From Staphylococcus phage LY01, in sequence record OR836606.1: a stretch of 64,000 nucleotides of DNA. One strand, given 5' to 3'. A model generated the notes under the pieces. The model was not told the DNA's origin. It worked only from the letters and a program-made list of their open reading frames with translations, and did not search any database. Both the position numbers and the translations under genes were made by a program. This document shows, one piece after another, positions 2,265 to 49,188 of this stretch (position 1 is its first letter; each line of letters starts with the position of its first letter).

Positions 2265-4493
2265 TTGCTTATTCGTGATGTAGGAAATAACAATATGGGT
2301 AGAAATGATGTACCTGAAATGTCTGATGAAATAGAATATTCCAAGACGAATAAAATATTACTTAATAATATATCAGAATGGTATTTGTTTGAAAAACAAG
2401 CGATCTTTAGTTTACCATTACTAAAAAAATATGAAAATGTGCTTAAAAGAGATTTAATAGATTATGATTTACCAAAATCATATCACTATAGACCTGAATA
2501 TCTATCTAATGAATTATATGGAACTACAGATCTTTGGTATCTTTTACTTTTCGTCAATGATATGCAAACAGTTGATCAATTTAATACAGATACCGTAAAA
2601 ATTTTTCCAGAGGTTGTCATTAATAGTTTAAATAAGATTATTAATGAAGAAAATGAAATACTGGGCACTGAAAATAACCCTAAACCTATTTTTAAACATA
2701 TGATGAAAAGTACTGAAGAAAAATCAGACAGAGTTACTCCGGGATATAACGATCCTAGAATTATACCATTTGTACCTGAAACTGACTTTGAAGATAAATT
2801 AGAAAATATTACTTCAGATAGATACTTAAGAGAAAGACATGAAGTTCACGAGCATAAATTCTATAGACCTGATACGGATAATAAAGATTTGGTAGAGCCA
2901 TTTACACTTAATAATGATGGTTTAAGAACTCTACCACATCTATTTTACAAAAAAGGTTTTTCACGTAAATTTCAAGGTAAAATGTATTTTAAACCGGGGG
3001 AAAGGTATTTATTTGCGCCTTTACAAAATGGTATGTCTAAATTAAAAATAACAGACCGAAAAGGTTTTAATATAATTAATGCTACAGAGAACTATCAATT
3101 TAAAGCACCTACAGCTATATTTGATTTAAGAAAAGCTAATGATGAAGATGTAAGTCATTCTAATCTTGAATCAACAAGATTATCTTCAGTAAGTTTTAAT
3201 CAAGAAACCGGTTTATATGAAGTTAAAGGAGATATTTTAAGTAAATCTGATAAAGAAGATGAAAATTCTGCATCATTTGTTAAAATAACTTTAGATGATG
3301 AAAATGAAAATCCTAGAATGAATATTAAACGTTTATTAAATTATGATTTCTTTGCATTTAATATGGGGTATTCTACGAACTTTAAAGATAATAATCACCC
3401 TACGGCTAAATTAGTTTATGATATCACATTAACATCAAATACTGGTAAAGTTAAAAAAGTAAAGAATATATTCCCTTCAAATAATAAAAATTATAACACA
3501 CAAGGTCAAAAATCATATCTTAAACATATGATGTACAATATAAAGAATATTAAGAAAATGGAAATAGAAGTTAAATTAACAGATTTCATTGATAATGTTG
3601 ATCCAAATGAAATAATTCAAGTTAGTTTAGATGAATTTGAAATTGCAGGAGTTAGTCATAAAGAATTCGATAATACATTTATTGTAACTAAGGAAGATTG
3701 GTATAATATCGAGCTAGAATATAATTATTCACTTAAAAATCCAGATGGGTCGGATTATTTCTATGATGAAAGTAGATCAGGAATATATTTTAATCCTATG
3801 ATAGTTGCATTGAGATCATATGGTACATTTCCTGTAAAAACTCAAACTTATACTGGATTTTATAATAAAACTTTATCTAAACAATCGTTAGGTAATTATG
3901 GGTATATTAGTTTCATGGAAGGAACAACTAAATTTGATGATGACGCATTGAACTATGTGTATAGTCAAAACTTTAAATTCCCTAAAAATTACATTATGAC
4001 ATTTAAATTAATTAATAAGAATAAAACTGGCGGAGCAGGAATTGTATTCGATTATAATACTCAACTTAATTCAGGTTATATGTTTTGGATATCTTCTCAA
4101 CAAGAAAATTGGGATGTTCCTTACTTTGATTTGAATGATGAAGATGTTATGACAGATCCTGACCGTATCATGAAAACTGGTTTCTATGAAATTGATAAAG
4201 TATTTGGAAAACCTAAAGAATTATTCCAAGATGAATCAGAAAAACAATTATTTGTTACTAATCACGTTCCATTGGATATTAATAATAAATATATTAAAAT
4301 AATTAAAAATGAAAATAGAATTAGAGTATTCATAGATAAGAATAAAAATTTTAATTACCGTAAACCAGATATCGATATTAAAGATATTGAAAATATCAAT
4401 ATGGAAGGTAAAATGGGTTTCATTTCTGCATTTTCAGGTTTAGAAGTCCAATTCGATAGTTATTATGAATATAAAGATAAATATGATGACTAA
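2265..4493 (+). CDS. Hypothetical protein (742 aa, N/K-rich); start may be TTG 2265 or ATG 2295
   Basis: Long uninterrupted ORF; AGGAAA RBS before ATG 2295. Confidence 0.55.
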   Translation: MLIRDVGNNNMGRNDVPEMSDEIEYSKTNKILLNNISEWYLFEKQAIFSLPLLKKYENVLKRDLIDYDLPKSYHYRPEYLSNELYGTTDLWYLLLFVNDMQTVDQFNTDTVKIFPEVVINSLNKIINEENEILGTENNPKPIFKHMMKSTEEKSDRVTPGYNDPRIIPFVPETDFEDKLENITSDRYLRERHEVHEHKFYRPDTDNKDLVEPFTLNNDGLRTLPHLFYKKGFSRKFQGKMYFKPGERYLFAPLQNGMSKLKITDRKGFNIINATENYQFKAPTAIFDLRKANDEDVSHSNLESTRLSSVSFNQETGLYEVKGDILSKSDKEDENSASFVKITLDDENENPRMNIKRLLNYDFFAFNMGYSTNFKDNNHPTAKLVYDITLTSNTGKVKKVKNIFPSNNKNYNTQGQKSYLKHMMYNIKNIKKMEIEVKLTDFIDNVDPNEIIQVSLDEFEIAGVSHKEFDNTFIVTKEDWYNIELEYNYSLKNPDGSDYFYDESRSGIYFNPMIVALRSYGTFPVKTQTYTGFYNKTLSKQSLGNYGYISFMEGTTKFDDDALNYVYSQNFKFPKNYIMTFKLINKNKTGGAGIVFDYNTQLNSGYMFWISSQQENWDVPYFDLNDEDVMTDPDRIMKTGFYEIDKVFGKPKELFQDESEKQLFVTNHVPLDINNKYIKIIKNENRIRVFIDKNKNFNYRKPDIDIKDIENINMEGKMGFISAFSGLEVQFDSYYEYKDKYDD

Positions 4494-4513
4494 AAGCAGT
4501 ATAATTGAGGTAA

Positions 4514-4552
4514 TGACATATAATTTGTCATTACCTCTTATTTTTTGCTAAA
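4514..4552. terminator. Bidirectional rho-independent terminator between convergent genes
   Basis: 12-bp stem gaggtaatgaca/tgtcattacctc followed by ttatttttt. Confidence 0.6.
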
Positions 4553-4559
4553 TCAACTT

Positions 4560-4784
4560 TTATTTCATATTTTTTCTAACTAAATAATCTTTTATTTCTT
4601 TAATGTCATATTTTTTAGATACTTCAAACATAAGTTCTCTAAGTTCTTTTAATTCTTTTTCTAGAGAATATTCTTCTTTATCTTTTAATATATCTTTTTC
4701 TACTTGCTTAGCGAATCTAAGTTGCATTCTTGAATAAAGTTCATCCATAGAAGAACCATTATCATTAAAAATATCTGGATTCAT
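4560..4784 (-). CDS. Small hypothetical protein (74 aa)
   Basis: ORF in a co-directional small-gene cluster. Confidence 0.45.
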   Translation of the reverse strand: MNPDIFNDNGSSMDELYSRMQLRFAKQVEKDILKDKEEYSLEKELKELRELMFEVSKKYDIKEIKDYLVRKNMK

Positions 4785-4789
4785 AACTG

Positions 4790-5071
4790 TTATTTCCCTC
4801 CATTTTTATATAATAATCTATTATATCGGGATTTTATGCTTCTGTTATTAATTTTTTCTTTAGATAAAGCTTCTTTTAGCTCTTTAATTTTTCTTTCTTT
4901 TTCTTTATTATCTTCAACAACTTTACTAGCCAAAGATAAAGCTTTATCAACTCTATTATTTAAATTATAAAATTTCTCTTCTGCTTTCTTAGTTCTAGCT
5001 ATAGTTTTCTTTACCGTATTGATAAATTCTTCTGAACTAATTATTCTTTTAATAGCATTCATATACTTCAT
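4790..5071 (-). CDS. Small hypothetical coiled-coil protein (93 aa)
   Basis: ORF, K/E-rich. Confidence 0.45.
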   Translation of the reverse strand: MKYMNAIKRIISSEEFINTVKKTIARTKKAEEKFYNLNNRVDKALSLASKVVEDNKEKERKIKELKEALSKEKINNRSIKSRYNRLLYKNGGK

Positions 5072-5075
5072 TCCT

Positions 5076-5351
5076 TTATTTAAGATTATCTCTGATAAAA
5101 TTCTTTAAATACTTTTTAGTTACTTCAGAATGTGAATTTAATTCGTTAGAAAGACGAACTAATTCTAGTTTCACTTCATTCAATTTCTTTTCATTAGTTT
5201 GATTAGAACTTTCTATTCTATTAATTAATGTACATATGATATCATTTAAATAATGATAATTATCTTTCATAGTATTTAATTTAATTTCATTCATTCTAGT
5301 ACGTTCTTCTAATTCGTCCATACGCTTAATTAAACTTTTTTCATTATTCAA
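5076..5351 (-). CDS. Small hypothetical coiled-coil protein (91 aa)
   Basis: ORF. Confidence 0.45.
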   Translation of the reverse strand: MNNEKSLIKRMDELEERTRMNEIKLNTMKDNYHYLNDIICTLINRIESSNQTNEKKLNEVKLELVRLSNELNSHSEVTKKYLKNFIRDNLK

Positions 5352-37579: not shown

Positions 37580-37643
37580 TTTTTATATACTATTTTACTA
37601 AAATATCTAATACAATCTAGTTAGATTTGTTTTATAAAAATTT

Positions 37644-37680
37644 GCGATAATAAATAGGTAATGACAAATAATATGTCATT
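37644..37680 (-). terminator. Hairpin terminator downstream of terL
   Basis: Stem aggtaatgaca/tgtcattacct; same motif family as the hairpin at 4514. Confidence 0.5.
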
Positions 37681-37693
37681 ACCTATAATATAT

Positions 37694-38098
37694 TTAATCT
37701 AATAGATTCATTATTCTTTTTGATTTCTGATCTGGAGAAGAATTGTTATTCTGTAATAAAGGATTACTAGGGAGATTACCATCAATAATTCCACTAATAC
37801 GTTTCATGGATGCAATATCTTTTCTTCTAGCTTGTCTTTCTTTTTCAATTTCTTCTGCATTATCTCCATCTGCAGATACCATTGAACCGTATTTAACTTT
37901 AACAAATTTCTTAATGTCTTTCTCATAGTAATAAGCATATAAACAAAATAGATAACTCATAAGTAAATCGTCATGTCCGCCATCAGGGTGATCAATTCTA
38001 CCTTTTTTCATTTGAAGGGATTTTATTTGTTGGAATAATGGTTTATTATTAACTAAATAAGGTTTTTCTTCAACAATCATTGATAAAATTTCATTGAG
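37694..38098 (-). CDS. terL: Terminase large subunit, final exon (nuclease-domain C-terminus, GGHDDLLMS)
   Basis: HPDGGHDDLLMSYLF resembles the terminal catalytic Asp motif of TerL RNase-H-like nucleases. In frame upstream only to 38119, so a 3' splice site lies at ~38099-38119. Confidence 0.6.
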   Translation of the reverse strand, partial: LNEILSMIVEEKPYLVNNKPLFQQIKSLQMKKGRIDHPDGGHDDLLMSYLFCLYAYYYEKDIKKFVKVKYGSMVSADGDNAEEIEKERQARRKDIASMKRISGIIDGNLPSNPLLQNNNSSPDQKSKRIMNLLD

Positions 38099-38099
38099 C

Positions 38100-38286
38100 A
38101 TTAGATCTGCTATATAAATTCATGAGTTTAATTTAATTAAAATGAATTTATTCGACTTCGTCATCACTCTGACTTACTTTGCACTTTAAGTTTTTTCGTT
38201 ATAAACTACTTCAACAGAAAGCTTTAATCAAAGCAGAGGTTAAAGCTCTTAAGTCATCGCATTTGGACATTTAGAGGAATAAGACC
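38100..38286 (-). ncRNA. Predicted TnpB omega-RNA scaffold / IS right end, with the guide abutting terL exon 5
   Basis: Immediately 3' of the tnpB stop; stem-loop AGCTTTAA-n12-TTAAAGCT plus further structured sequence; an omega-RNA is expected for IS605 TnpB loci. Confidence 0.4.
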
Positions 38287-39456
38287 TCATTTAGCCTGCC
38301 CAACAAAACGCTTACCATACAGTTTTAAATTGACAGCAGCGTTATAATCTCTATCCATTTTATGTCCACAATCACAGGAATACCATCTATCTGATAGTTT
38401 CAACTTATCTTCTTTAGTTAGAATTTGGCCACAATTAGAACATAATTGAGTTGATGGAAACCATCTGTCAGCTACAATAATAGTATTACCATTGCTTTCA
38501 GCTTTTTGTTCAAGTAAAGTCCTAAACTGTCTCCAATTGGACTGTGCGATTGATTTGGATAGTTTTCTATTTTTAATCATATTTGAAACCTGTAAATCTT
38601 CAATAGTTATATATTGATAATTGTTAATCAAGTTAGTAGTAATCTTATGAAGATAATCTTTTTTAATATTATTAATTCTATACCATACTTTTTGTATTTT
38701 GGTTTTCAATACATTGTATTTATTAGAACCATAAACTTTTTTAGATAATCTTTTTTGGTAGTATTTGATTTTATTATAGAGTGAGATTAGTTTATTATTT
38801 AATGAATGGTATTTTTTAAATTTACCGAAATCATCATTAATAATAGCTAAATCTTTTACACCTAAATCAATACCTACATGACTATTGTTATGAATTAATT
38901 TTTTACTGTTATCAACTTTCATTACTATCGAAGCGAAATACCTACCAGCATATTTGGATATAGTTACTTCTTGTATAGAATTATAATCTTTGTTTAAAGG
39001 TTCTTTCATTTTAATTAATGAATTTACACCACGCAATTTAAGTTTATTATTTTTCTCACCTTTAATTTGAATAGCGTAAGGATCTTTCCTATAGAACCTT
39101 GCTCTTAATTTAGATTTCTTTTTAGATTTAAATTTAGGATATTTACCATATCCTTTCCACATCATATTAAATGCTTTACCTAGATCTTCTGTAGAAGTTT
39201 CAATTATCATGATAATTTGATCTTTCTCCCAATCTTCTTTACATTTTTTAAGTTCATCACGAACTCTACGATGAGTTGGTTTTGGTAAAGATTTATCAAT
39301 TTGATAATTATTCCACATATATTTCCATTTATTAAGTGCCTTGTTATAAATATAACGACTATATCCAAAAGCTTGATTAAATATCTCTCGTTGTTCTTTA
39401 TTAGGTTTCAATTCGATTTTTATAGATTTGTACATGTGATTTTCACCTCGATTCAT
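38287..39456 (-). CDS. tnpB: TnpB (IS605 OrfB family RNA-guided endonuclease)
   Basis: N-terminal ELKPNKEQREIFNQAFGYSRYIYNKAL. RuvC-I HVGIDLGVKDLA, RuvC-II ITIEDLQV, zinc finger CSNCG...CDCGH, RuvC-III DRDYNAAVNL. Confidence 0.9.
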   Translation of the reverse strand: MNRGENHMYKSIKIELKPNKEQREIFNQAFGYSRYIYNKALNKWKYMWNNYQIDKSLPKPTHRRVRDELKKCKEDWEKDQIIMIIETSTEDLGKAFNMMWKGYGKYPKFKSKKKSKLRARFYRKDPYAIQIKGEKNNKLKLRGVNSLIKMKEPLNKDYNSIQEVTISKYAGRYFASIVMKVDNSKKLIHNNSHVGIDLGVKDLAIINDDFGKFKKYHSLNNKLISLYNKIKYYQKRLSKKVYGSNKYNVLKTKIQKVWYRINNIKKDYLHKITTNLINNYQYITIEDLQVSNMIKNRKLSKSIAQSNWRQFRTLLEQKAESNGNTIIVADRWFPSTQLCSNCGQILTKEDKLKLSDRWYSCDCGHKMDRDYNAAVNLKLYGKRFVGQAK

Positions 39457-40037
39457 ATTTCTAAATGATTTAGAATTTATAATTCATTGTTTAATATATC
39501 GAGGTAAAAATTATTTTAATTAAATTAAACTCACGAATTCCAGAAATCCCTTTCAGGTTCTGTTAAATAGCAAGACTATATCATGATCCATTAAATCAAT
39601 GGACCCCTCGCACTTCGAAAAACTTCTGATGAAGTTAATCTACTCTACTCACTTCACATAGTATTTCAACTATGCTTATTCAGGTTAATCAAACCTGTGC
39701 TTTCGATAGTCGTTGAACGTTTATCCATCATGTGGACACTTCGCTGCTAGACTTCCCATTGTTTACAAACTTTAGCGATCTAGGGTTTTCACCTAGACTT
39801 GTTTTCAGCATAGTTCATCTTAGAGATTTTTTCTGTCTTTCGACTGCATGTCACGCTATCCATTACTGGCATACGTTGTAGCTCTCTAAGCTTTAGGGTT
39901 TTACAAGCAATTCACGAGGTATTTTTACCACTAATTTCATGAATTAAAATTAGTTTAATTTACTTATATAGTAGCAGAGCGTGAAACATGAATTAATAAG
40001 AATTTAAGTCTTAATTCACTTAAAATATCTTAAATTA
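39457..40037 (-). ncRNA. Group I intron ribozyme portion of the IStron
   Basis: On the minus strand: P GAATTGCTTGTAAAACC, Q AAAACAAGTCT, R GTTCAACGACTATC, S CATGATATAGTCTTG. Confidence 0.65.
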
Positions 40038-40877
40038 AAACTGTTTCGTTACTCTAGATTTTTTAGTTGTATCAATACCATATCTTCTTACTTGTTTGGT
40101 AACTTTATTAGTGCTATTTCTAGGAATTTCATTAAATACTTGCTTATTAACTTCAACTTGTTTTTCTGCTACTCTATTCTTTAATGAGTAGAAAATATTG
40201 TCTCCAATACCATCAGTTTGAATCATATCTTCTATCATTACAGTACCTGCATAGTTACGTTCAGGTATTAATACTGCATTAGGTATATAAAGCGTAATAA
40301 GTTCTTTAATTAATTTTCTAAAAGTAGGTCCATTAATTACATTATTTTGGAAAATCATTACAGGCTCTAATGTACCTGGATCAACTACAGTAAATGCAGT
40401 ATTATCTCGACCAAGACCACCAGATATATCAATACCAACAAGCCAGTTCTTTTCATGCATATTATCCATCTTTTTAACCATATAAACATAATAAGTTTTA
40501 CCATTTATTTTAAAATCAATAGTATTATATATCTCTTTATTTGCATATAATGATAATTCTGACATTTGTTGTTCATCAAATAAAGAATCATCGTTACTAA
40601 ACGCCCATTCAAGAAGTATCTCACGTTTAACTGCTTCTAAAGAACCAATTTGACGTTTTTGCTTTTCTAACCAAGCATCATCTTTACCTAATTCTTTATA
40701 TGAATATTCTATATAGATGAATGAATTGCCTGAATTACTTTCCATATACTCTTCTAATTTTTCATTACCCTCTTCTTCAGAATTAATGTAATAATCATAT
40801 ATTTTTTCTGTCCATTGTGCTGCATCATTCATTTGCTCAAAGAAGAACTGTCCTTGAGGTACATCCAAAGTACTCAT
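40038..40877 (-). CDS. terL: Terminase large subunit, exon 4 (nuclease domain). The 5' end (3' splice site of intron A) lies near 40877-40890
   Basis: LVGIDISGGLGRDNTAFTVVD RNase-H-like nuclease motif. PQGQFFFEQMNDAAQW resembles TerL PNGxNhFYdiW. Ends ...VTKQF followed by TAA, the first codon of the IStron. Confidence 0.7.
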
Positions 40878-41035
40878 ATTTTTTATCCTATATTAATTTA
40901 ATATAGATAAGACTATATCTTAGTATATTATAATACCATTTATTATTTAGTCGTTAAACAAGTATTATCAACTTGATGCTGATTGTCTTAATAAAGATTT
41001 TCCAGCAATTAAATAAATAAGCCCAGTTTAATTTT
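40878..41035 (-). ncRNA. Miniature group I intron A in terL (~150-158 nt)
   Basis: Minus strand: IGS GGGC pairs with exon GCCU. P AATTGCTGGAAAA, Q ATCAGCATC, R GTTTAACGACTAAA, S AAGATATAGTCTTA; P3, P5, P6 and P9 hairpins identifiable. Confidence 0.7.
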
Positions 41036-41107
41036 AGGCGTTGTTGTAATTAGAAGACCATAAGGTGTGCCATTTTTCTTAGCTATTGCAGATGCTGTAG
41101 AAACTGC
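41036..41107 (-). CDS. terL: Terminase large subunit micro-exon 3 (72 nt; AVSTASAIAKKNGTPYGLLITTTP)
   Basis: In phase between introns B and A; contains the TerL motif III ITTTP. Confidence 0.65.
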
Positions 41108-41267
41108 CTTTTAATATTAATCTACATGGATTCCATATAGAATAGACTATATCTTAGTATTATATTAATACTATTTATTATTTAGTCGTTGAACACTATA
41201 AATAGCGATGCTGATCGTCTTAATAAAGATTTTCCAGCAATTAAATAAATAAGCCCGCATTAATTTC
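41108..41267 (-). ncRNA. Miniature group I intron B in terL (160 nt); ~90% identical to intron A
   Basis: P, Q, R and S elements present. 5' splice site after AGGCCU with IGS GGGC; 3' end ...TTAATATTAAAAG. Confidence 0.7.
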
Positions 41268-41330
41268 AGGCCTCATTGCTTCAAACATTGTTTGGTTGTG
41301 TGGAATGAATGCCCACTCATCCAACCAGAC
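41268..41330 (-). CDS. terL: Terminase large subunit micro-exon 2 (63 nt; VWLDEWAFIPHNQTMFEAMRP = Walker B)
   Basis: hhhhDE-aafIP Walker B signature of TerL ATPases; in phase 0. Confidence 0.65.
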
Positions 41331-41634
41331 CATAGGTCATTATGTTAACTATATTTAAAAAATATAGATCAGACTATATCATACTCATATAAATAAGTGA
41401 ATATATTTAGTCGTTGAACACTATAATTAGTGATGCTGATTAAGATAATAATCTATTCCAGCAATTAATATTCTTTTACTACTGCAACTATCTACAGTAG
41501 AACCACGCTATTTTAGACTATATCTTCAATTTTATAATTGTCTTTTATTTAGTCGTTGAACACATATGTGATGCTGATCAAATTAAATAATTTGTCCCAG
41601 CAATTAAAAAGATTTATAGCAAGCCATGATATTA
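41331..41634 (-). ncRNA. Composite intron in terL: two tandem group I cores (D at ~41480-41634, C at ~41331-41500) with no exon between them
   Basis: D: the intron starts TAA after the exon ...AGCAGGT, IGS GGCTTGCT, P/Q/R/S, P9 ctactg..cagtag. C: P AATTGCTGGAATAG follows immediately, then Q/R/S/P9. The 3' splice site was chosen to restore the VWLDE frame. Confidence 0.55.
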
Positions 41635-42276
41635 ACCTGCTTTATTTGCACTCTCACTGTTAGTCGGAGGTGAAACTGTTTTAATAGTATTGTTATTACT
41701 AGCTAATTGAAATTCGTTGATCTTATCTCTATCATTTTTATCTCCAAAATTAGCTAATACATATTCAGGTAAACATTTCTCTTTAAATAAGTTTTTAAGA
41801 CGTTTTAAGTTCTCAGTTGTATCTGAATAAGATTTGTGTGTAAATAACATTGTATAGTTACTACCTACTAATAACATTATCCATGAATAATAACATACTG
41901 CTGAATATGTTTTATAGTGCTGACGTGGAAGCATTATAGCTGTATCTAAATTGTGTAACATACAAAATGTCATCGCCATATTACCTCTATGAAGTTCATA
42001 CATAACCTTACCGCCAGGAACAGGAACTCTTATAACTTCCCTTAAATAAAACCATATATTAATTTTAGCTTCCCTTAATACACGGGTTTTCATTTCATCA
42101 GAAAGTTCAGGATCCCAAGGATCTACTCCTACAAGATTTTTATCATATAGAGTTAATGGAATCCCATAATTTCTGACGTTGTTCTTCTTAAGATCCCTAG
42201 CCACTCTTAAAAAACTAACATTATTAGTTTTATAATCGTAATAAACTTTTTTCTTTAATTTTGGTTTAATTGTCAT
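41635..42276 (-). CDS. terL: Terminase large subunit, exon 1 (ATPase N-terminal region, Walker A-like PRQHYKT)
   Basis: MLPRQHYKTYSAVCYYSWIMLL P-loop-like; the ORF terminates at the intron's first codon, TAA. Confidence 0.7.
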
Positions 42277-42295
42277 ATTTATTTCAACTCACTTT

Positions 42296-43459
42296 CTATA
42301 CATTTAATCTATCTGATTTTTTAATTAATGTTTGAATATCAGAAAGTTGTTGTTTTAATTCATTTTTAACTTCTTTATCATTATTAGGGTTACTTATTTC
42401 AAATTTTAATGTTTTAATAATAGCTTCAATTGAATCCGTTGGATAGTCTCTATAGTCTCTAATAAACAATCTACTTGGATATAATAATTTCCTAACAATT
42501 TTACCTAATAAAGTTTTACCTTTTTTATTTTCAGATTTAGTTCTAAATGATTTGTATATGATATCATAAAAATTTATAATTTCAGTAGAATAACCGTATA
42601 ACGTAGGTAACTGATTAGCCGATCTTTCTGAAAGGTTGTAGTTCATTTTACCCACTCTTTCATTATCTAAAAGATTTAAAGTTACATTAGCTATAAAAGA
42701 ACTGCCTAACACCAGTGGTAATACTCCTGTCAATGAAGTTAATCCAGCAACTAAAACTGTCATAGCTATAATCATAGGACCTGCGAATTTTAAATTTCTA
42801 GTTGTATCAGATTCAATGTCCTTAGTATACTGAAATTGAACTGGCTTGTTATCTTTATATTTTAATTCAAAAGCGGGTTCTTTTCCTTGGCTTAATACTT
42901 TAATTTCGATAGGTAAAAATAGATTATGTCCCATTTCATGCAATAATAATGCAGTACACATTCTTTCATTAAAATTACTAAAAGTCACTTCTTTAGAAGA
43001 TTTTTTCTTTTCTAAAAAGTATCTTATTGAAGATAACTCAATAAATACCTCAATTTCCCTAGGTTTAGCGTAATGTATACCATTTTTCTCTTCCATAACT
43101 ATTTTTGTTATGCCATCAATAGTATCTCTTATTTGTTCTGGCTTAATTAAAGTATAAGCCACTGATCTTACTCTAAATTTATCTTTACCTTTAGGATCAG
43201 CTTCAACAAATTTTAATTGCATATTAGCATTAAATAATTTTTTAGTAATTTTAGAAATATTATTAGCTATTTTATTTATTTCATGTTTATCAATTAAATC
43301 AAATTCAGATTTATCGAAATTATAGCTATCTAATAAAGTTTTAAATTCTTCATCTATTTCTCTAAGTAATGAAGTATTTTTACTGAAATTAAAAGCATCT
43401 TCATTAATATTCATTATTTTATTAATTTTATTCAATTGGCATTCTTTTCGTAAATCCAT
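42296..43459 (-). CDS. Putative membrane-associated HExxH zinc metallopeptidase (387 aa), paralog 1
   Basis: LLHEMGHNLFLP motif; hydrophobic TM segments; paralogous to the adjacent gene. Confidence 0.55.
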   Translation of the reverse strand: MDLRKECQLNKINKIMNINEDAFNFSKNTSLLREIDEEFKTLLDSYNFDKSEFDLIDKHEINKIANNISKITKKLFNANMQLKFVEADPKGKDKFRVRSVAYTLIKPEQIRDTIDGITKIVMEEKNGIHYAKPREIEVFIELSSIRYFLEKKKSSKEVTFSNFNERMCTALLLHEMGHNLFLPIEIKVLSQGKEPAFELKYKDNKPVQFQYTKDIESDTTRNLKFAGPMIIAMTVLVAGLTSLTGVLPLVLGSSFIANVTLNLLDNERVGKMNYNLSERSANQLPTLYGYSTEIINFYDIIYKSFRTKSENKKGKTLLGKIVRKLLYPSRLFIRDYRDYPTDSIEAIIKTLKFEISNPNNDKEVKNELKQQLSDIQTLIKKSDRLNV

Positions 43460-48180: not shown

Positions 48181-48404
48181 ATGTCTAAAGATATAAAAGC
48201 TTATCTTATTAATGAATCTAACACAACTTCTCAACCAGAAGTAGTTCAAGATAATAATAAATCGGTTAGATTCATTGCTGAGTTACAAGAAGCTGATAGA
48301 CAAAACCGTAATGGTCGTGTTTATCGTAAAGATGTTATTCAAAGTGGTTTAGATAGTCCAGTAATACAAGAAAAATTAGCAAGAAAAACTTTTTATGGTG
48401 AGTT
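48181..48404 (+). CDS. Prohead core protease (T4 gp21-like), exon 1
   Basis: NGRVYRK and YGE(L)HP align to T4 gp21 RLYPK / GELNHP; the exon ends GTGAGTT, which pairs with the IGS GGCTCAC. Confidence 0.65.
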
Positions 48405-48561
48405 TTAGGTTAAATGGCTCACATTAAATTATATTAATTGCTGGAAAAGATTATTATCTTAATCAGCATCAACTTAATACAAGTTGTTCAACGACTAAAT
48501 ATATAGCCTAGATGATATAGTCTAACCTTTATTAAAATGATAAAGAATAATAATTTGCAGG
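48405..48561 (+). ncRNA. Miniature group I intron 1 in the protease gene (157 nt)
   Basis: Plus strand: P AATTGCTGGAAAAG, Q AATCAGCATC, R GTTCAACGACTAAA, S GATGATATAGTCTAA, P9 ctttat..ataaag. Confidence 0.75.
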
Positions 48562-48817: not shown

Positions 48818-48998
48818 TAAATTGTAGCAGCTTTATATAGAAATATATATTGAAAAAGAATATTAATTGCTAAGAAGTTTAATTAAGCCAATTAGCATCA
48901 ACTTAATACAAGTTGTTCAACGACTAAATATATTTACTCTTAATAAGAGTATGATATAGTCTAATCTTAATAGTAAGATCTATTAAGTTAATATAATG
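48818..48998 (+). ncRNA. Miniature group I intron 2 in the protease gene (181 nt), P4 covariant
   Basis: P AATTGCTAAGAAG with Q AATTAGCATC: compensatory GCUAAG/UUAGC versus GCUGG/CCAGC in the other introns. R GTTCAACGACTAAA, S ATGATATAGTCTAA. IGS GCAG pairs with exon CUGU. Confidence 0.75.
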
Positions 48999-49025
48999 TA
49001 CGATAAAATAAACCTTGTCGCTTCT
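48999..49025 (+). CDS. Prohead core protease micro-exon 3 (27 nt; YDKINLVAS)
   Basis: In-frame segment between intron 2 (3' end at G48998) and the TAA that starts intron 3. Confidence 0.5.
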
Positions 49026-49188
49026 TAAAGCAATTTAAGAATGATAAAACTATTAATTGCTAAAATCTTTTATTAAAGTAATTAGCATCAACTTAATAAA
49101 AGTTGTTCAAAGACTAAATATAGTTTATCCTTTTATAGGATAATGATATAGTCTGATCTATATTATACTAATATAGATAACATAAATG
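49026..49188 (+). ncRNA. Miniature group I intron 3 in the protease gene (163 nt)
   Basis: P AATTGCTAAAATC, Q ATTAGCATC, R GTTCAAAGACTAAA, S ATGATATAGTCTGA, P9 ctatattatactaatatag; ends ...CATAAATG. Confidence 0.7.

Follow-up and report, generated by a model that had tools for sequence, protein, structure and literature searches.

IStrons have been described since 2000. No other elements are known to us that unite ribozyme, transposon and RNA-guided nuclease in a single RNA, and the published IStrons we know of are almost all bacterial, apart from two clostridial phages. Here we describe an element of this kind in Staphylococcus phage LY01, in a sequence window of 64,000 nucleotides (nt; record OR836606.1), where it lies on the minus strand inside the terminase gene terL. 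CdISt1/CdiIStron of C. difficile, of group A (IS200/IS605 type), combines a 5' ribozyme and an internal tnpB with a target of the TTGAT type, U as the last base of the 5' exon, a TnpA of the Y1 family and DNA hairpins near its termini; the LY01 element has the same general plan of ribozyme and internal tnpB and none of the latter four features. Group B (IS607 type) includes CbISt4 and CbISt3 of the C. botulinum phages c-st and D-1873, listed in 2014 (Tourasse et al., PMC4227781), BcISt1 of Bacillus cereus, for which splicing in vivo was reported (PMC4227781), and CboIStron of C. botulinum (10.1101/2023.11.20.567912, PMC13521648). Published members of group B often lack ORF A, and the function of TnpB in IStrons was published between 2023 and 2026 (10.1101/2023.11.20.567912; PMC13565253). 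A reading of the window made from its letters alone (the sequence-only reading) had proposed a group I ribozyme plus an IS605 TnpB element within terL, and had called this setting unusual. It is less so than claimed: IStrons were published from phages (c-st, D-1873) as early as 2014, and within this phage clade terL is known as a hot spot for introns. In our literature searches we came across no paper that deals with phage LY01 or with an IStron of a jumbo phage or of a terL gene.

We found that the LY01 element has the layout of an IStron, namely a group I ribozyme in its 5' part, tnpB in intact form and 180 nt of conserved structure at its 3' end, and we consider it highly probable that it is an IS607-type (group B) IStron without tnpA. 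The proposal of an IStron within a phage terminase gene was borne out by covariation in the ribozyme, restoration of TerL in silico and homology to published IStrons. The junctions were set by eight intron-less terL alleles, those of phages S6, PALS_2, Madawaska, MarsHill, Machias, SA1, PB50 and AH12. The 5' junction reads ...AAATCTAGAG^TAACGAAAC... and the 3' junction ...TATATAGCAG^ATCTAATGC... (^ marks the junction), the full right-end junction being ...AATTTATATAGCAG^AT CTA ATG CTC, and all eight published relatives carry the empty site AAATCTCGTG^AT[C/A/T]TAATG. This comparison, which had been suggested beforehand, defined the insertion site and corrected the extent of the element from 40037-38099 to 40051-38107; the CAGTTT^TAA junction proposed at 40038 is 14 nt off and is merely the place where the open reading frame (ORF) of exon 5 meets a stop codon of the intron. 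The ends of the element coincide with the predicted splice sites, and its excision in silico regenerates terL, with ...AAATCTAGAG^ATCTAATGCTC... as the predicted spliced junction. The reading frame was restored only by cutting behind G 40052 and taking G 38107 as the terminal G. A cut at the canonical place, 3' to the U in the U-G pair, was rejected, as it shifts the frame and no pairing of it with a terminal G gives back TerL. Within the window, ribozyme core, right end and guide are each present once.

The exons of terL were placed by alignment, including blastn, to the uninterrupted terL of phage S6 (677 aa). Five group I introns divide the LY01 gene into six exons (Table 1); introns 1-4 are very small (127-161 nt), and intron 5 is the IStron. 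When joined in silico, the six exons amount to 2034 nt and encode a TerL of 677 aa, identical to S6 TerL at 656 of 677 positions (97%) without gaps. A functional terL elsewhere in the genome, together with a lack of splicing, had been named as a finding that would speak against an IStron here; no second terL piece was found within the 64-kb window, and the published relatives have one terL each. The DNA around the element is 84-92% identical to that of the Staphylococcus jumbo phages S6, PALS_2, UFV_DC4, Madawaska, MarsHill and SA1, and about 76% identical to that of Machias, PB50 and AH12. This clade consists of AR9/PBS1-like phages with presumed uracil-DNA and many intron-split genes, in which terL introns had already been reported and the reconstruction of TerL had failed (bioRxiv 10.1101/2020.12.14.422802). 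An exact exon map of terL, which the published description of the clade could not rebuild, is now available.

The ribozyme was compared with homologues in phage genes. An 18-nt core motif, GCAGTCGAAAGACAGAAA, retrieved 13 phage contigs from IMG/VR, several of which have clearly homologous introns in phage genes, and an alignment of seven sequences (A3) was built from the window core, the element of Listeria phage LPJP1 and five introns of the IMG/VR contigs. RNAalifold recovered the long-range P3 together with P4, P5 and its extension, P6 and P8, and addition of the invariant P7 (GACUAU / AUAGUC) gave the P3/P7 pseudoknot typical of group I introns. With P7 included, 96.8% of the 433 cells of the core are paired in the seven sequences, as compared with 31-40% when the partners were slid by 1-3 columns. 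Half of the pairs (31/62) have changed on both sides, and none of 500 shuffles reached the observed values. The flank and guide strands of P1 also covary among elements (GAGG^U with GCCUC in c-st; GGAG with CUCC in LPJP1 and in contig L048). Between P7 and the 3' strand of P3 lie 93 nt with hairpins, at the position where ribozymes of subclass IA2, the subclass described for group B, have P7.1/P7.2. The P9.0-like duplex is kept in five elements, with a compensatory change in L034 (CUGUCAU / AUGACAG), and no convincing complement for a P10 helix was found between exon 6 and the guide region. The GC-richer segment noted earlier is real (0.40-0.41 at 39600-39899 versus 0.2-0.3 around it). The sequence-only reading had named four core motifs, whose failure to fold would have counted against it. 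The core does fold, with its 31 covarying pairs, and three of the motifs were placed correctly: P is the 5' strand of P4, R (GTTCAACGACTA, 39718-39707) holds the 5' strand of P7 and occurs nine times in the window against 0.31 expected, and S (GATATAGTCT, 39582-39573) holds the 3' strand of P7. The motif taken for Q (AAAACAAGTCT, 39805-39795) was misplaced, as it is not the partner of P; that partner is TCTAGCA.

The assignment to group B rests on the junctions, the ends and the homologues of the element. Its 5' exon ends in a G paired to C, and the first intron base is a U paired to a G of the guide (UAGAG^U with GCUCUG). Splicing after G with U at +1 has been shown experimentally for BcISt1 (PMC4227781) and is described in PMC13565253; BcISt1, judged from its published description, likewise has a long AU-rich inverted repeat around its ORFs, and differs in its AGGG target and chromosomal location. 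The left end is similar in sequence to that of the c-st element CbISt4 (TAACGAAACAGTT and TAACTAACAGTT, respectively). CbISt4 and CbISt3 (PMC4227781) are also phage-resident, have the same order of ribozyme, tnpB (tnpA being deleted in CbISt4) and structured 3' end, start with the same TAAC.AACAGTT, and have a 5' exon ending in G with U(+1) paired to the guide G; in addition, c-st and LY01 have the ribozyme block CCTAAAGCT...CTACAAC in common. The TnpB of c-st, however, is only 34% identical to that of LY01, the flank and terminus there are GAGG^ and ACGG^ as against AGAG^ and GCAG^ in LY01, and c-st and D-1873 are clostridial and prophage-like, whereas LY01 is a lytic Staphylococcus jumbo phage with the element in terL. 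CboIStron resembles the LY01 element as an IS607-family element with TnpB and an omega-RNA scaffold overlapping the 3' splice site; its target-adjacent motif (TAM) is TGGG and its scaffold ends in UCGG, in contrast to the flank consensus T[A/G]GAG and the end GCAG here, and its activity has been measured, whereas that of the LY01 element is deduced from sequence. The LPJP1 homologue carries an ORF with a Resolvase domain (E 3.3e-18) followed by tnpB, with the same ribozyme and right end (...AATTTATATAGCAG^). The tnpA gene is missing from the window copy, where only about 78 nt separate the inverted-repeat arm from tnpB.

An IS605-type element of group A, as in C. difficile, would consist of a ribozyme followed by an IS200/IS605 unit with a subterminal hairpin and a Y1/HUH TnpA. 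The match of TnpB to Pfam OrfB_IS605 could be taken in its favour, though this domain is common to ORF B of IS605 and IS607, as could the hairpin directly upstream of tnpB. That hairpin, the only one cited, is located some 550 nt into the element, where it overlaps the Shine-Dalgarno sequence of tnpB; the flank is CTAGAG, so that the last base of the 5' exon is G, where a T-rich pentanucleotide such as TTGAT would give U, and the element terminates in GCAG, not TCAG (PMC13565253). Since the LPJP1 homologue has a serine recombinase and no Y1 transposase, and the left end is homologous to that of the IS607-type CbISt4, we regard a group A origin as very unlikely. The IS605 subtype proposed earlier is thus contradicted by the G^U splice site, the long AU-rich inverted repeat, the CbISt4-like left end and the LPJP1 serine recombinase. 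Likewise, the proposed layout of a ribozyme followed by an insertion sequence with its own left-end hairpin does not apply, as the transposon ends coincide with the splice sites. The likeness to clostridial IStrons held for the ribozyme, tnpB and structured right end, and failed for the type, which is that of group B and not the IS605 type of C. difficile.

The tnpB gene is complete, as had been claimed. Its product, annotated in LY01 as a mobile element protein (100% identity over the full length), has the Pfam domains HTH_OrfB_IS605, OrfB_IS605 and Cas12f1-like_TNB and matches solved TnpB structures at E values of 1.7e-49 to 7.5e-41; the RuvC residues D (GIDLG), E (TIEDL) and D (DRDYNAA) and the zinc finger CSNCG...CDCGH (CxxC...CxC) align with those structures. 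The start codon is most likely ATG 39435, seven bases past GAGGTGA. The hairpin ACCUCGA...UCGAGGU, which had been taken for a transposon left end, exists, and its 3' arm covers the ribosome-binding site (RBS) of tnpB. Its stem recurs with different, compensatory bases in L036 and L038 (UUACCUCC / GGAGGUAA), L046 and L034, which suggests translational control of TnpB. A second TnpB of LY01 (protein P0002), 81% identical and encoded outside the window, presumably belongs to a second IStron elsewhere in the genome. The TnpB of Machias (38% identity) was rejected as part of an IStron, as its gene stands alone and has a terminator upstream and an RBS of its own. In Klebsiella phage Miami (L019), 100 nt (2501-2600) are 78% identical to the P4-P5 region of the ribozyme; this stretch belongs to a 1.4-kb gap without annotation that follows gene 282, and a free-standing tnpB lies about 3 kb downstream of it.

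The structured right end, estimated earlier at about 185 nt, measures 180 nt from the tnpB stop to the end of the element and was aligned with five related elements. In its structure 92% of cells are paired, as compared with 31-42% in slid controls, and 14 pairs have changed on both sides. A long AU-rich inverted repeat (33 nt, 91% complementary, 1357 nt apart, duplex energy -37.7 kcal/mol) loops out tnpB, and such duplexes are also present in five related elements. The terminal bases, ...UAUAGCAG, can pair with UGCUAU directly 3' of P7 (P9.0-like), which puts the terminal G at the catalytic core. Alternatively, the terminal UAGC can pair with the GCUA found at the stop codon of tnpB. The three segments involved have changed in concert in L034 (GUCA / UGAC), which is one compensatory event only. 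These two alternative pairings match the published antagonism of intron and omega-RNA folds in IStrons (10.1101/2023.11.20.567912), which are mutually exclusive in CboIStron. The right end is a candidate omega-RNA scaffold. The putative 20-nt guide downstream of it has a single occurrence in the window.

Table 1. Features of the terL IStron of phage LY01, of its host gene and of related elements. Positions are those of the window unless a contig is named.
Feature	Position	Strand	Remark and basis
Whole IStron	40051-38107 (1945 nt)	minus	starts TAACGAAACAG..., ends ...TATATAGCAG; terminal G = omegaG; comparison with intron-less terL
P1 5' strand	40056-40051	minus	exon UAGAG + first intron U; splice site after G 40052; minimum free energy (MFE) fold, z = -4.6
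Internal guide sequence GCUCUG (P1 3' strand)	39980-39975	minus	MFE fold; hairpin extension of about 70 nt between the P1 strands
P2 hairpin	39954-39930	minus	MFE fold
P3 5' strand CCUCGUG	39919-39913	minus	partner 39612-39606; 4/7 pairs changed on both sides; RNAalifold, pair counts
P4 5' strand TTGCTTG (P motif)	39910-39904	minus	RNAalifold, pair counts
P5 + extension (P5a-c-like)	39903-39752	minus	helices 3-8, most with compensatory changes; includes GUCGAAAGAC GNRA hairpin 39844-39835
P4 3' strand UCUAGCA (true Q motif)	39751-39745	minus	alignment, RNAalifold, pair counts
P6 hairpin	39744-39717	minus	helices 9-10; 7/9 pairs changed on both sides
P7 5' strand GACUAU, within R	39711-39706	minus	pairs with 39579-39574, crosses P3; invariant in 7/7 sequences
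Extra helices between P7 and P3 3' strand (P7.1/P7.2 position)	39705-39613	minus	alignment A3; RNAalifold called one short helix only
P3 3' strand UGCGAGG	39612-39606	minus	RNAalifold, pair counts
P8 hairpin	39605-39585	minus	helix 13; 4/5 pairs changed on both sides
P7 3' strand AUAGUC, within S	39579-39574	minus	pair counts, A3
P9.0-like 5' strand UGCUAUUUAA	39572-39563	minus	pairs with last bases of element, 38117-38108
P9a hairpin CAGAA...UUCUG	39562-39541	minus	read from sequence
Long AU-rich inverted repeat, 5' arm	39539-39507	minus	
Hairpin ACCUCGA...UCGAGGU	39505-39445	minus	3' arm covers tnpB Shine-Dalgarno GAGGT
tnpB	38287-39435	minus	382 aa from ATG 39435; ORF extends to ATG 39456
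Right end, candidate omega-RNA scaffold	38300-38107	minus	conserved stems; GCUA at tnpB stop (~38296) pairs with 3'-terminal UAGC
Long inverted repeat, 3' arm	38149-38117	minus	partner of 39539-39507
Putative omega-RNA guide / TnpB target	38106-38087	minus	first 20 nt of exon 6; position relative to right end, analogy with IS607/IStron TnpB (10.1101/2023.11.20.567912)
terL exon 1	42276-41635	minus	S6 alignment
terL exon 2	41507-41494	minus	14-nt micro-exon (...RGSTV...); confirmed by intron-less S6 and PALS_2 alleles
terL exon 3	41337-41268	minus	S6 alignment
terL exon 4	41107-41036	minus	S6 alignment
terL exon 5	40874-40052 (823 nt)	minus	3' end ...AAA TCT AGA G; blastn against S6, spliced translation
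terL exon 6	38106-37694 (413 nt with stop codon)	minus	starts AT CTA ATG CTC; S6 alignment, spliced translation
Small group I introns	41634-41508, 41493-41338, 41267-41108, 41035-40875, 33489-33328	minus	
Small group I introns	48404-48557, 48818-48998, 49005-49188	plus	
RBS stem in relatives	L036 340-425; L038 350-430; L046 125-195; L034 3435-3500		
3' flank, window			ATCTAATG
3' flank, L037			ATCTAACA
3' flank, L036			TTCATATA
3' flank, L038			AGAAGATA
3' flank, LPJP1			CGTGGAAA
3' flank, L046			TATGAATA
3' flank, L047			AAAAAATT
3' flank, L048			TTACAATG

Close relatives of the LY01 TnpB (57-76% identity; 41% for LPJP1) were found on metagenomic contigs and in LPJP1, in elements ending in ...A[T/A]ATAGCAG^, and the sequence past ...ATAGCAG^ is unrelated across eight independent insertions (Table 1). 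More than 100 further TnpBs (about 60% identity; about 100 clusters) occur on metagenomic contigs of 235-250 kb. The one such contig inspected, L034 (an ENA scaffold of 239,371 bp), has a homologous IStron at 2900-4835 with the end ...TATATGACAGG^. A search for related loci in IMG/VR with TnpB alone found none, the TnpB alignment gave only relatives of 25-34% identity, and the metagenome scan yielded three useful short contigs; the right-end motif GACGAAGTYGAWTAAATTC, searched in IMG/VR and 185,579 genomes, gave only chance matches in unrelated contexts. Individual relatives showed further arrangements. In LPJP1 (L004, about 268-2710) an IStron with a serine-recombinase tnpA lies between the RBS and the start codon of groL, and its tnpB is shortened by an in-frame stop (TGT TGT TGA). 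Contig L048 (JGI24503J29689_10025773, 1445-2290) has a ribozyme, then a right end without an ORF (...TTTAGATAGCAG^), then tnpB, an arrangement that is either tandem/nested or a miniature derivative. In L036 (Logan SRR26805165_475, 2882-5081) a gene for the anaerobic ribonucleotide reductase NrdD, called in three pieces, lies downstream of a related IStron and is probably split by further introns.

The LY01 element could also be an ordinary phage group I intron in which a captured tnpB has replaced the homing endonuclease, that is, not (or no longer) a transposon and passed on by vertical descent only. Conventional phage group I introns with homing-endonuclease ORFs (L010 and L006 of IMG/VR; Twort-like and AR9-like phages) do have a closely related ribozyme, that of L010 being close to the LY01 one, lie in essential genes and are expected to spread through double-strand-break repair during co-infection. 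They differ in that their protein nuclease reads DNA directly, whereas here an RNA-guided TnpB and transposon ends are present. The lack of tnpA in LY01, the single copy in the window and the absence of the element from all eight relatives would also fit such an origin. On the other hand, the combination of ribozyme, tnpB and right end recurs with the identical terminus ...ATAGCAG^ at sites unrelated to each other (among them terL, the region before groL in LPJP1 and the vicinity of the nrdD pieces in L036), a tnpA for a serine recombinase is present in one copy, and LY01 has the second TnpB with 81% identity. We therefore consider such a captured-nuclease origin improbable, and prefer that of an IS607-derived transposable element. 

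From the anatomy, homology, covariation and in silico exon restoration described above, we infer a mechanism of splicing, guide-RNA production, nuclease activity and homing. The 5' half of the element in the terL transcript would fold into the group I ribozyme, with UAGAG and the following U paired to GCUCUG as P1. The P9.0-like pairing and the 33-bp AU-rich stem would return the far 3' end to the core with tnpB looped out and the terminal G acting as omegaG. Splicing would then join ...AGAG to AUCUAAUG..., and, with the four small upstream introns removed, give the 677-aa TerL. The same 3' end may fold alternatively as the omega-RNA scaffold, with the initial ~16-20 nt of exon 6 as its presumed guide, so that, as we propose, splicing and guide-RNA production would compete for one transcript. 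TnpB, translated from the RBS in the conserved stem, would cut empty sites with the right flanking motif, and repair from the occupied genome would copy the element in (RNA-guided intron homing). Intron homing by TnpA-less IStrons is a published hypothesis (PMC13565253).

By analogy with characterized TnpBs of IS607 elements and IStrons, we infer that the TAM corresponds to the 5' flank and the guide to the opening ~16-20 nt of exon 6. Homologous elements have flanks of the form T[A/G]GAG, the window copy with A (TAGAG), LPJP1 and L048 with G (TGGAG). In each of the eight relatives (L001, L002, L003, L021-L025), TCGTG stands in place of TAGAG (window 40056-40052), a synonymous difference in an Arg codon (CGT vs AGA). 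The two substituted bases fall at positions of P1 guide pairing and of the presumed TAM, and in the surrounding 60 nt only 1-2 other positions differ from the closest relatives. The LY01 flank and guide are TAGAG+ATCTAATGCTCAATGA, as compared with TCGTG+ATCTAATGCTTAATGA in the allele of Madawaska and MarsHill; the guide has one mismatch in these two phages, three in S6 and PALS_2, and four to five in Machias, SA1, PB50 and AH12. With this TAM, the known relatives would escape cleavage and would also be unable to splice the element, and their TCGTG flank may explain why only LY01 carries it. Homing into, or competition against, intron-less relatives, as put forward in the sequence-only reading, is plausible in principle. 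An alternative is that TnpB has been taken over by the phage as a helper or regulator of splicing, or as a nuclease against competing phages, and does not serve the upkeep of the element. Its intact gene without tnpA and the translation signal in a conserved stem, suggestive of regulation, agree with this idea, as does the competitive advantage that phage-intron endonucleases can confer (reviewed in PMC13565253). Nothing separates it from selfish homing, however; the sole available guide is the element's own 3' flank, and the relatives differ at the flank motif with 1-5 guide mismatches. We give such co-option little credence.

Several observations weigh against the group B assignment or the proposed mechanism. 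The flank AGAG^ and terminus GCAG^ are not the GG^ and CGG^ of group B (PMC13565253); the dinucleotide common to flank and right end is AG in the window and also in LPJP1 and L048, which have the flank GGAG^ and terminus GCAG^. The U(+1)-G pair is missing in LPJP1 and L048, where +1 is A. Without tnpA, the LY01 copy is incapable of autonomous transposition, and the TAGAG flank is missing from the known relatives, leaving no natural homing target among the eight alleles. The right end folded alone is unexceptional in MFE (z = -1.0). Finally, Rfam cmscan, suggested beforehand as a check with group I and IS605-orfB models, gave no match at the gathering score in the whole window, and no group I or IS605-orfB match at E<=10 in 37600-42400. 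We do not count this against the ribozyme, because covariation among homologues is strong and the eight small introns described below were also missed (0/8 detected); the null result reflects model sensitivity. A decaying, non-splicing insertion, with terL a pseudogene or TerL made otherwise, would agree with the Rfam result and with splicing being predicted from sequence. We find it scarcely credible, as all core helices are intact in the window copy, the exact junctions give a full-length TerL 97% identical to that of S6, terL has no other piece in the window and is single in the published relatives, and LY01 is, by its protein record, an isolated phage.

Beside the IStron, the window contains eight very small group I introns of 127-184 nt, the genes interrupted being terL, the prohead scaffold/protease gene and, probably, the RNR alpha gene. 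All eight are preceded by a U paired with a guide G close by, and all have G as the last base. The P/Q/R/S elements are present, and P1, P3, P4, P5, P6, P7 and P8 can be formed with differing sequences; a P9 hairpin can be formed in all except I1, whose 127 nt would be unusually small for a natural group I intron, and P2 and P7.1/7.2 are missing from all eight. In the protease gene, a 6-nt micro-exon, TACGAT (Tyr-Asp; 48999-49004, plus strand), lies between two adjacent small introns, as confirmed by the intron-less alleles of S6 and PALS_2. The terL introns 3 and 4 are near-identical, including the guide GGGC, and both follow ...GCCU, which looks like spread to a second guide-matching site by reverse splicing or ectopic homing.

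The review of OMEGA systems of 2026 (PMC13565253) puts forward that TnpB alone can maintain and spread an IStron by intron homing, a proposal 'awaiting experimental validation'. An IStron without tnpA in terL, which is essential and present once in this lytic phage, offers a natural test of it. The features in which the present elements vary from known ones are modest, namely AG at the junction, the stem over the RBS and a lineage of jumbo phages. Homing classically takes place when phages co-infect a cell, and empty alleles for a homing test already exist in cultured relatives. It is possible, though we suggest it only tentatively, that these elements form an undescribed lineage of tnpA-less IS607-derived IStrons in lytic jumbo phages (LY01, LPJP1 and many metagenomic genomes of about 240 kb), with an AG junction and a T[A/G]GAG flank, which would spread between co-infecting phages by TnpB/omega-RNA homing, possibly on uracil-DNA, with the terminal UAGC switching between folds. 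With their AG instead of GG junction, the related jumbo-phage elements could widen the known TAM range of compact TnpB nucleases.

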